From Promethearchaeota archaeon (GTDB lineage Archaea > Asgardarchaeota > Lokiarchaeia > Sigyniarchaeales > SOKP01), in NCBI GenBank assembly GCA_048939995.1, contig JBHLOY010000009.1, positions 1 through 64,000 on the forward strand: 64,000 nt of DNA, in the 5' to 3' direction. The stretch's first letter is position 1. The number at the start of each line of letters is the position of its first letter. Shown piece by piece: positions 36,414-39,848 of this stretch. The position numbers were made by a program, and so were the translations under genes. The notes below the pieces were generated by a model. That model made no database searches. It worked only from the letters and a program-made list of their open reading frames with translations, and was not told the origin of the DNA.

Positions 36414-37655
36414 TTAATAACCGTTATTTGACTGGTTTTTGTCCTGCATTTCATTTATTATTTTATTGCGTTCCTTTGGGGTTAATGATGACATTTCTCT
36501 GATAAACTCTTCTTTTTCATTAGGGTCCCATTCAAATTTTTCAATGATGGTATAAAAGTCTTCTGTAAATGCGGTAATCTCGACTTTTTTTACTTCAGAC
36601 TTTTTTTCAGTGCTTTTTCTTTTCGAATAAGCGTTCTTCTTGGAGTAAAAGAAATAAATAGGAACCACGATACTAACACTAATCGCTCCAATAATTAAGA
36701 ATACATTTAACAAATACCAAGGGAATTGATCAATATAAAAGATAAATATTCCTTCTAAACCAATTTTCGGATCATGTGAAATATCTGCTCCATGAGGGTA
36801 TATTAAATATATTTTTTGATAATCATTATCATAATCATCCATTCCAAGATTAGTTGCATTTACAGCTTTTAAAAGTCCATCAACTAGTACATTTTGATTC
36901 CAAGAGAATATTCCGATGAATGAGTTATTAAGGGTTGAGACTGCTTTTTCATTAAAGGCATATCCAAATTCTTCATCTTCCGTTTCCTCAATTTCATCAT
37001 AATTTGTTTCTGACTCTAGGCTAATATATAATGCTAGTTTTGATAAAGTATTATTAAAGGGAAAGTTGATATCAAAATCAATCTTTGGTTTAGTTGGAAT
37101 CATCAATGCATCATCTCTTATAACAAATTCTTCTGGAATATAAAGATGCATGGTAAAAATACTGTCACTTGAGTTAATGATGAAATGATGCACAGAGGTT
37201 TGAGCTGTGATAACCTCTTGTTGATATTCTGCCGGATCGAAGCTGTCTAATTCGATTTCTTGTATGTTATTATCAATGGTTGGATCAAATATACCATTAT
37301 CGTTAATATCTACAAATTCAATAAGTTTTCTAATAATAACACTAAACTCTATTTCAAATTCAGCTTCGCTCTCACTAGTATATTCCGATTCGTAGCTCAC
37401 CTCAAATCTTATTCCTTCACTATTATATCTCACTCTTAATTCTATTTCATCTCTTTTTGTTCCCTGTCTTAACAGAGATTGGACTTCAATTTCATTAGAA
37501 GAAAGTGTAATGTCAGTATCTCTCAGATTTAACTCTTCAAAATCGTCATCAACGTGATCGTCATCATCGTCAGAACCTAATACCGAATTTGAATTAAGCA
37601 TTAAAGTAAACACGAATAATAATATAATTCCCGCTATTAGATTCTTTTTTTTCAT
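36414..37655 (-). CDS. Single-pass surface protein with acidic Ca-binding-like motifs and a cytoplasmic helical tail
   Basis: Signal peptide, DDDDDHVDDDFE, EFVDINDNGIFD, HDP, TM segment and an about 75-aa tail. Confidence 0.8.
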   Translation of the reverse strand: MKKKNLIAGIILLFVFTLMLNSNSVLGSDDDDDHVDDDFEELNLRDTDITLSSNEIEVQSLLRQGTKRDEIELRVRYNSEGIRFEVSYESEYTSESEAEFEIEFSVIIRKLIEFVDINDNGIFDPTIDNNIQEIELDSFDPAEYQQEVITAQTSVHHFIINSSDSIFTMHLYIPEEFVIRDDALMIPTKPKIDFDINFPFNNTLSKLALYISLESETNYDEIEETEDEEFGYAFNEKAVSTLNNSFIGIFSWNQNVLVDGLLKAVNATNLGMDDYDNDYQKIYLIYPHGADISHDPKIGLEGIFIFYIDQFPWYLLNVFLIIGAISVSIVVPIYFFYSKKNAYSKRKSTEKKSEVKKVEITAFTEDFYTIIEKFEWDPNEKEEFIREMSSLTPKERNKIINEMQDKNQSNNGY

Positions 37656-37731: not shown

Positions 37732-38754
37732 TTATTTTATTCTTCGCTTTCTATAGATAAGGATACTACTAGCACTAATAACTGCAACAACACCTATTAT
37801 AACCCCGATCAACACAAATGGTAACCAATCAGTTCCAGCCTGTATAGAATAAATACTCATTGTTGGGTCATGGTAAATATAATCTCCCCTAGGATAATTA
37901 AGGTAAAATTTCTGCTCACTTTCATCATCATCATCAGTTTCTATTTCACTTGCTAAAACTTGTTTCGAAATTCCATCAATGGTTGCATTTTCCTTCCAAG
38001 TAAAAGCCCCTATAAAATTATTTAGTTCAGTTTTTACACCTGATTCATTGGATGTATATCCATCTTTCTCATCCTCAGTTTCTTCCTGGTATTCATATTC
38101 ACTACTTGAACTAAGTTTAACATATAGAGCTAATTGTGAGTTTCCATTAAGATAGTTGAAATTATTTATCTCAATGTCAATTTTCAAAGAGGTTGGTGCG
38201 ATAAAGGTTCCGTTTACTATTGCAAATTCTTCAACAACGTATAAGTGAGCTGCAAAAGTACCATCAGTACTATTTATAAATATATAGTGTAAGGTTGTAT
38301 CGGTAGATATATTAGATGAAGTGTAAACTGCTGGTTTGAAACTATCTAAAGGAATTTCTTGAATTGTGGTATCAATTAAAGGCTCATAAATACCATTACT
38401 ATTTAGATCAACAAATTCGATTAATTCTCGAAAGTTTGCTTCAAATTCGATTTCAAATTCTGTTTCATTCTCAGCTATGTATTCAGACTCATAGCTAACT
38501 TTAATATCAACGCCATTATTATCGTATTTAACATTTAATTCAATTTGATCAATTGGACCCTCGCGTAATAACGATTCTACCTTAATTTCATCTGATAAAA
38601 GCTCGACTTCAATGTGACGTTTAGTTGATTCTTCATAGTCATCATCAATTCCATCACTGTCTTCATCTGTGGAGGCTGTGACATTTAATGAAGAACTAAA
38701 AGCTACTAATGAAAGTATCATTATCAATAAGAACCCATAATTCCTTATTTTCAT
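37732..38754 (-). CDS. Paralog of 36414..37655 lacking the cytoplasmic tail
   Basis: DEDSDGIDDDYE, EFVDLNSNGIYE, HDP and TM-RKRRIK; collinear with its neighbour. Confidence 0.8.
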   Translation of the reverse strand: MKIRNYGFLLIMILSLVAFSSSLNVTASTDEDSDGIDDDYEESTKRHIEVELLSDEIKVESLLREGPIDQIELNVKYDNNGVDIKVSYESEYIAENETEFEIEFEANFRELIEFVDLNSNGIYEPLIDTTIQEIPLDSFKPAVYTSSNISTDTTLHYIFINSTDGTFAAHLYVVEEFAIVNGTFIAPTSLKIDIEINNFNYLNGNSQLALYVKLSSSSEYEYQEETEDEKDGYTSNESGVKTELNNFIGAFTWKENATIDGISKQVLASEIETDDDDESEQKFYLNYPRGDYIYHDPTMSIYSIQAGTDWLPFVLIGVIIGVVAVISASSILIYRKRRIK

Positions 38755-39337: not shown

Positions 39338-39659
39338 ATCTAGTAATTAAATAAAAACGTTTTTTTTTTTATTTATTTGGTTTATTAAGCTGGTATTAAT
39401 TATACTATTTTTATTAAATCATTTACCGGATTGAATTATTATCTATTAAATATAAATTCATACTTTTTTATGATTTTTCCATGGAAACATTTCTTTTCTG
39501 CTAAATCTTAGAGCTGTTAAAAGTTTATTCTTAAATAAAGAGAATAGATAAGAACTAGGATTTCTAAGCTAAATGTTTATATTTAAGTTTTGTATATATT
39601 TTTTCATATTTTTACGATTATATAAAAAAAGTAGTGAAACACAGGAAAAGGGAAGGATA

Positions 39660-39779
39660 ATGGCAAAAAAGAAAGCTCCTAAGAAAAAACCAGCACCTAA
39701 GAAAAAAGCAGCCCCCAAAAAGAAACCAGCTCCAAAAAAGAAATAAACTCCTAAAAAGAAAACCGCTGCTAAGAAATAA
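39660..39779 (+). CDS. Histone-H1-tail-like Lys/Ala/Pro repeat peptide; internal TAA at 39744-39746
   Basis: MAKKKAPKKKPAPKKKAAPKKKPAPKKK*TPKKKTAAKK*. TATA-like TTATATAAAA at 39618, SD GGAAGGA, T-tract at 39803-39811; synonymous variation between the 18-bp units. Confidence 0.75.
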
Positions 39780-39848
39780 TACATATGAAAGAATAACTAT
39801 TATTTTTTTTTAACTTTAGTTTTTTAAAGCTTAACGATATAGCATATT

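Follow-up and report, generated by a model that had tools for sequence, protein, structure and literature searches.

A selected lysine-, alanine- and proline-rich peptide gene in a family of Lokiarchaeia and its plausible role in chromatin

Introduction

The window, a stretch of 64,000 nucleotides from a Promethearchaeota archaeon, harbors a genuine gene under strong purifying selection, which encodes a free-standing polycation of 28 residues and recurs as 44 distinct complete loci, one per genome (approximately 45 genomes), in two genera of a single Promethearchaeota (Loki) family. The TAA codon that interrupts its repeat is real as well, though seemingly of little interest, and a role of the peptide in chromatin is plausible. 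The explanation as a whole, according to which a selected polycation gene would provide a DNA-neutralizing and DNA-bridging tail in trans while the stop codon represents a tolerated trim, is given somewhat better than an even chance.

According to a review, archaea have yielded no linker histones with homology to H1 (PMC6136690). No description of the peptide was found in the literature, and it goes unmentioned in the searched passages of the latest Asgard chromatin proteomics (bioRxiv 10.64898/2026.07.02.735847). An all-lysine peptide of 3 kDa would escape tryptic proteomics as well as the usual gene-length cut-offs, and it is plausible that its gene is invisible to ORF callers. Eighteen family peptides were absent from a collection of 15 billion proteins, which contained the 44-aa and 77-aa controls and may lack entries below 40 aa. 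On the opposite strand, an antisense shadow ORF (window 39569-39784, minus strand; 71 aa of Phe, Leu, Gly and Ala) arises as a by-product of the repeat and might be picked by a gene caller instead.

Layout of the Peptide Gene

The features of the locus are compiled in Table 1. Only Met, Lys, Ala and Pro occur in the 28-codon ORF, and the resulting peptide of 3.1 kDa has a pI of 11.1 and a charge of +15. Re-reading of the sequence bore out the composition given in the first-pass annotation (15 K, 6 P, 6 A), together with the closing TAA and the in-frame continuation of the repeat beyond it. In all six frames of the whole 3.75-Mb genome this is the sole K/A/P repeat of its type, and its lysine codon usage resembles that of the histone gene.

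Table 1. Features of the peptide locus in the window; positions are those of the whole stretch, and offsets are relative to the ATG.
Feature	Position	Strand	Remarks
Probable TATA box TTTATATT	39576..39583	+	-84 from ATG; family-conserved position
Second AT-rich, TATA-like stretch	39618..39627	+	equivalent at -55..-32 in only 14/44 loci
Shine-Dalgarno (SD)-like purine tract GGGAAGGA	39650..39657	+	SD-like tract in 42/44 family loci
CDS of the 28-aa Lys/Ala/Pro peptide	39660..39746	+	ATG 39660, closing TAA 39744-39746; purifying selection vs seven relatives
Decaying remnant of the former C-terminus	39747..39779	+	10 in-frame codons and ancestral stop (second TAA, 39777-39779); G019, G010 and G021 run through with Ala/Pro codons
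T9 tract, probable archaeal transcription terminator (predicted function)	39803..39811	+	run of at least 6 T at most 90 nt downstream in 44/44 loci

The complete mini transcription unit proposed at first pass withstood scrutiny with respect to the SD tract, the start codon and the T9 tract, but probably not with respect to the TATA box, which had been placed at the second AT-rich stretch, while the box conserved in the family is the upstream one and lies outside the coordinates given at first pass. A TTTAWA motif lies at -95 to -72 in 31 of the 44 family loci, most often at -81, compared with 20% of the genes in the genome of the window. Use of this box would imply a leader of roughly 55-60 nt, counted from a predicted transcription start, and the second stretch is probably situated inside this 5' leader. 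As for the SD-like tract, about 12% of the genes with a free upstream region in the same genome feature a strict SD, a motif defined differently from that of the family count. A bacterial promoter and terminator scan yielded nothing above shuffled sequences, the promoter type scanned being the wrong one for an archaeon.

On one side of the gene, which stands alone, lies a divergent membrane-protein gene and on the other a convergent ZIP transporter gene (PF02535), which is followed by a Ras-family GTPase. Neighboring genes differ from clade to clade, and hence the peptide unit is self-contained. A functional link with the adjoining ZIP transporter or the Rab-like GTPase was considered and rejected, since the ZIP neighbor is common to the two closest relatives only and 18 other ZIP loci are devoid of the peptide. 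Further upstream, the window contains two tandem paralogues on the minus strand (36414-37655 and 37732-38754), which are secreted or membrane-anchored and in which the signal peptide is followed by an acidic DDD/EE motif; a Pfam scan of one of the two gave no match. Just upstream of the peptide gene, two relatives (G010 and G350; L003:2292-2696 and L104) encode a low-complexity protein of about 135 aa, which is made of K/D/E repeats with alternating charges.

Distribution and Selection of the Gene Family

Family loci were gathered by DNA and pattern searches over the genus, the class and the phylum, followed by translation. The search of relatives for homologues suggested at first pass thereby yielded all 44 loci. 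The gene is present in 17 of the 42 genomes of the window's genus, while the second genus contributes 27 complete loci, or 28 of 54 genomes if one locus cut by a contig end is included. A record assigned to a third genus is identical to one family locus and may be mis-binned. L099 (G336:C50) and L128 (G376:C16) are identical in the peptide gene and its upstream region despite assignment to two genera, which makes a mis-binned contig probable. The window's genome groups with Promethearchaeota (Lokiarchaeia), since the named GTDB records in which the gene recurs are MAGs of Promethearchaeota/Promethearchaeia, a few of them carrying other Asgard labels.

The family peptides comprise 27-38 aa (median 34) with 12-19 lysines each, and their overall composition across the 44 loci is 50% K, 28% A, 18% P and 2.5% G, that is 95% K/A/P, with Arg at only 0.3% and neither Asp nor Glu. 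Comparison of the window's gene with seven close relatives yields 65 codon differences that are synonymous and 13 that are non-synonymous, even though 79% of the sites are non-synonymous; the pairs share ancestry, which makes the P value no more than indicative. The selection on the peptide claimed at first pass is thus corroborated. In the single pair with G018 the ratio is 16 synonymous to 1 non-synonymous, with synonymous sites near saturation. Because homologues occur in approximately 45 genomes and are under purifying selection, the gene is genuine and not a product of chance, and it is very probably translated. Charge, K/A/P alphabet, a minimum length of about 27 residues and the free MAKK start are evidently kept by selection, whereas the exact register is not. 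Since alphabet and length are kept and register is not, the peptide would be a disordered polycation that works by charge and spacing rather than by fitting a pocket. A single-sequence structure model of a 38-aa homologue contained neither helix nor strand (pTM 0.17).

More than half of the family's genomes, several near-complete ones among them, yielded no copy of the gene, where it should be considered that short-read assemblies can break at such repeats; on account of these absences it is probably dispensable. It was likewise not seen in 14 genomes of the neighboring family, which holds large single-contig genomes and in which histones were the only matches. In G269 a neighbor gene is present without the peptide, in a locus that is rearranged. 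A phylum-wide profile search was insensitive, missing known family members. A second metagenome scan retrieved two intact 33-aa relatives, while viral contigs contained no match and a search of solved structures with the peptide returned nothing. One of 31 genomes of another Asgard family encodes a look-alike of 32 aa (L163/L190; G318:C82:3171 onward), a free K/A/T/P peptide that has an SD of its own, contains three TPAKK motifs and is probably of independent origin.

Relation to the Tailed Histone HLoB

Within these cells, the peptide is matched best in sequence by the HLoB-type tailed histone, namely by its N-terminal tail, which begins with the same residues. HLoB occurs in 105 of the 134 family genomes and is intact on contig C21 of the window's genome. 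Such tailed histones of Lokiarchaeia (bioRxiv 10.64898/2026.07.02.735847; fold NCBIfam NF043032) share first residues, K/A/P alphabet and host organisms with the peptide. Moreover, the promoter layout is similar, with the TATA element at -81 for the peptide and at -89 for HLoB and with an SD and a T-tract in both. On the other hand, the peptide lacks the histone fold, occupies a separate locus and is two to three times as long as the HLoB tail of the same genomes. In the neighboring family, the HLoB tail has about the length of the peptide and a similar make-up.

A histone-fold remnant was detected in no frame between 39000 and 40700 (best E 1.5), and since no such remnant follows the peptide, its gene is not a broken histone gene. 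All homologues end at 27-38 aa.

With regard to common descent, the promoters are suggestive of kinship: among 2333 upstream regions, that of HLoB comes 2nd (3rd without the SD) when the upstream regions of seven close homologues serve as queries. With the other two peptide groups as queries, its rank is 20 and 47 if the SD is included and 193 and 956 if it is left out. A stricter, TATA-anchored profile test gave weak kinship, the median percentile being 88, 75 and 50 in the three groups. A promoter motif common to HLoB and four peptide loci was defined post hoc and is not counted as a test. On these grounds, an origin of the peptide gene from a copied HLoB promoter and first codons, followed by repeat expansion, is about an even proposition. 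It speaks against descent that 16 ORFs in the genome begin with MAKK, that K/A/P repeats are also found on RNA polymerase, Alba-like, Rpo5-like and initiation-factor-like proteins of Asgard genomes, that free peptides and HU tails of bacteria are near-identical, and that lysine-rich tails have been argued to arise de novo easily (PMC10919886). Because such repeats are cheap to evolve and occur on other proteins, sequence likeness proves neither descent nor target.

Covariation of the peptide with the histone tail of the same genomes is not evident. The idea that the peptide makes up for short HLoB tails was abandoned, since within the family G011, G016, G035, G239 and G347 combine longer tails with the peptide. 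In the window's genome, a 65-aa ORF beginning with MAKKPTQ (contig C13) features the GGAGGAAT leader, as do all five histone genes, and may encode a short divergent histone-like protein; this leader occurs in 12 genes of the genome.

Candidate Targets of the Peptide

DNA, or chromatin, is somewhat favored as the main target by analogy with known systems. Expression of the single-gene transcription unit would yield a small, unfolded and strongly positive (+15) peptide, presumably in abundance, which would bind the DNA backbone irrespective of sequence and neutralize and bridge DNA between or around histone-wrapped stretches. In effect, the peptide would be a histone tail supplied in trans and act as a supplementary, non-essential factor. 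The C-terminal domains of AlgP and PhaF are K/A/P tails that bind DNA (PMC11894788), and tail-only H1-like proteins organize chromatin in Toxoplasma and kinetoplastids (PMC9769792). Loki DNA is packaged mainly by histones, with alternative chromatin proteins largely missing, and the tailed histones occur in abundance, bound to the nucleoid and methylated at lysines (bioRxiv 10.64898/2026.07.02.735847). If the peptide is indeed a chromatin component, Loki chromatin possesses, in addition to tailed histones, a compaction factor that consists of a tail only.

A more far-reaching version seems unlikely from the sequences at hand, namely that one Loki family copied off the modifiable tail of its histone as an abundant micro-protein, which compacts or bridges histone-wrapped DNA in trans and bears the same lysine marks, as an independently evolved archaeal functional analogue of H1. 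If true, nature would here provide a model for the possible emergence of a tail-only H1 from a core-type histone.

Charge alone cannot separate DNA from RNA as the partner of a polycation. Hence, the peptide could instead mainly bind RNA or the ribosome, as a counter-ion, an RNA chaperone or a tiny accessory ribosomal protein, a category for which eL41 and bS22 are the models. Similar K/A/P extensions on Asgard translation and transcription proteins are consistent with such a target, and ribosomal proteins also associate with the H1-like protein of Toxoplasma (PMC9769792). However, length (27-38 aa), register and repeat type vary freely and Arg is scarce (0.3%), unlike in peptides that occupy rRNA pockets; moreover, at the loci seen, the gene never lies beside ribosomal genes, and its presence is patchy. 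This alternative is rated as rather unlikely, though as the most probable of the rivals.

Improbable, by comparison, is a decoy function, in which the free peptide would imitate the HLoB tail, sequester the writers, erasers and readers of tail marks or compete for them, and thereby tune histone modification. The N-terminal residues are the same as those of HLoB, the window's genome contains three SIR2 genes, Loki tail lysines are methylated, and synthetic tail peptides are acted upon by LoHAT2 and LoSIR2b (bioRxiv 10.64898/2026.07.02.735847). For such a purpose about ten first residues would do, but selection keeps at least 27 residues with 12-19 lysines, and the peptide does not evidently covary with the histone tail within genomes.

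Binding or sizing of polyphosphate or another stored polyanion is highly improbable. It is suggested by the KPAA-repeat protein AlgP, whose K/P/A tail ties polyphosphate granules to the nucleoid (PMC11894788), but AlgP requires a folded N-terminal domain that is missing here, and neither PPK1 nor PPK2 was found in the 98%-complete genome in a search with working controls. Finally, patchy presence, recurrent nonsense changes and shifting neighbors could be taken to indicate a non-functional by-product, such as a decaying duplicate of a histone 5' end or a slippage repeat, which is scarcely credible given the very low non-synonymous rate at near-saturated synonymous sites (16 versus 1 with G018), the conservation of signals across two genera and the absence of a nearby histone-fold remnant; for the family as a whole, the selection signal refutes it.

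The Internal Stop Codon

The TAA at 39744-39746 is real and not an assembly error. This check, called for at first pass, rests on assembled contigs: a 914-nt contig of run X4, which stems from the same study as a possible source sample, bridges the stop with 0 differences, and a contig of run X8, from another study and another strain, also reads the stop, its six differences all lying outside the peptide gene. A contig of run X10 bridges it too, with no difference at the stop among the 8 of 9 that are listed. Thereby the read error proposed at first pass as one of three accounts of the stop is dismissed, while another, a recent truncation, is supported by Ala codons at the stop position in the two closest relatives, whose peptides continue to 36 and 38 aa. 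By this comparison the TAA is the derived state, and the remnant behind it is, as judged from its drift, now untranslated.

Strain variants fall into the remnant, namely Pro to Thr at 39750, which converts TPKK to TTKK in one strain, Pro in place of the second Thr at 39762 in two strains, and Lys to Arg at 39775, while no strain change is among the differences listed for long contigs in the 28 coding codons. Comparison of the sequences indicates that both Thr codons of the remnant are derived and that TPKK is a mutation subsequent to the stop.

Premature stops followed by a K/A/P remnant occur in five loci (the window's, G018, G367, G201 and G224). On the tree they require five independent events, or four at the least if only well-supported branches are counted, and they are unlike in codon, position and context. 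All five lie at codons 28-33, for which the rough chance is 0.016, with a search pattern able to catch stops from about codon 14. Residues outside the alphabet make up 5 of 35 in the remnants versus 32 of 1440 in the coding parts (P 0.0014), and the enrichment persists if the final ten residues of intact peptides serve as the reference (P 0.011). In all probability, the stop is a neutral, tolerated truncation, and the comparisons can be read such that the final one or two repeat units are dispensable while about 27 residues are needed. In this respect the natural truncation series amounts to a structure-function result, in which about 27 residues appear to be enough.

The third account, a programmed readthrough switch adding a phosphorylatable TPKK unit, draws on the in-frame continuation and on the four further loci in which a stop is followed by the repeat, but has hardly any likelihood left: 39 of the 44 loci lack an internal stop and the five stops differ, TAA is the main stop codon of the genome (1524 of 2205), the Thr codons are derived with TPKK itself lost in one strain and the second Thr being Pro in two, and S/T-P occurs in only 2 of the 44 coding parts. 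Stop codon, context and downstream extension, on which readthrough genes are judged, are not conserved among relatives. A metagenome scan returned no match with a sense codon at the stop position, and there was no suppressor tRNA among the 20 tRNAs found, a set too incomplete to count.

Comparison with Linker Histones and H1-like Proteins

The first-pass annotation had regarded the gene as that of a free-standing linker-histone-like peptide in an Asgard archaeon. A stand-alone, selected K/A/P polycation gene it is, but the affiliation to linker histones does not hold, as the globular domain is absent and the HLoB tail is the closest match. With canonical linker histone H1 (PF00538) the peptide shares the composition of the C-terminal tail (95% K/A/P), which in H1 is roughly 100 aa long, compared with 27-38 aa for the entire peptide. 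Unlike H1, it features neither a winged-helix domain nor the tripartite layout nor conserved S/TPxK motifs: the peptide has no Pfam match, 28-38 aa are too short for a winged helix, S/T-P is confined to 2 of the 44 coding parts, and the TPKK of the window lies behind the stop and varies between strains. A genome-wide PF00538 search was blank, as were its controls. Based on its sequence, the peptide is a member neither of the linker histone H1 family nor of the histones.

The tail-only H1-like proteins of kinetoplastids (kinetoplastid H1) and Toxoplasma (TgH1-like, 91 aa; PMC9769792) are likewise basic, K/A/P-rich repeat proteins that stand alone without a globular domain. In contrast to them, the peptide is archaeal, about one third as long and devoid of conserved S/T-P sites, and the likeness is one of composition; a nucleosome linker is not known in Loki chromatin. 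By analogy, it is most likely best filed beside these polycations, as a much shorter archaeal variant that would work likewise.

Lys-rich penta- or hexamer repeats in variable copy number also connect the peptide with Chlamydia Hc2/HctB (165-237 aa, PMC2848022; PF07382), the C-terminal domains of AlgP and PhaF (PMC11894788) and mycobacterial Rv3852, all of which are far longer. No curated profile (PF07382, NCBIfam) matched above threshold, the best being Rv3852_fam with 12.7 bits against a cut-off of 100, in a search limited by the short, low-complexity query. The likeness to bacterial H1-like proteins is most likely convergent. Bacterial look-alikes comprise free peptides of 27-28 aa in Chloroflexi and Dormiibacterota (L066, L073, L074) and a 118-aa protein in a Gemmatimonadetes MAG (L065); they share start, alphabet, size and a strong SD with the peptide but belong to another domain of life and have other promoters. 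HU tails in bacteria are also near-identical to the peptide. Because it is restricted to two genera, probably dispensable, not seen in the neighboring family and matched by bacterial look-alikes, the peptide is not the ancestor of eukaryotic H1.

Lysine-Rich Tails on Other Asgard Proteins

In the family that holds the peptide, the end of the RNA polymerase subunit Rpo1N (G000:C11 near 186500-186900, minus strand; L262-L351) consists of a Lys-rich linker, which is about 40-100 aa long and in some genera made up of pure PxKK repeats, and of a small conserved domain behind it, which comprises about 35 aa and has an AIWRGK motif. A few genomes suggested that the peptide is complementary to this linker, a notion that was discarded, since within genera length, charge and PxKK count are alike (all P >0.16). 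The small AIWRGK domain also ends or forms other proteins in the window's genome (contigs C17 and C28). Elsewhere it constitutes a free protein of 44 aa that begins with a short MAKKK stretch (L049:1441-1575, G011), and it opens a 116-aa protein whose tail is K/T-rich (L018:1345-1695); there was no Pfam match. Further K/A/P extensions were observed in other Asgard families on proteins resembling by eye Alba, Rpo5, initiation factor 2 gamma and tailed histones (L151, L153, L154; L152, L162; L169, L171, L175; L173, L174).
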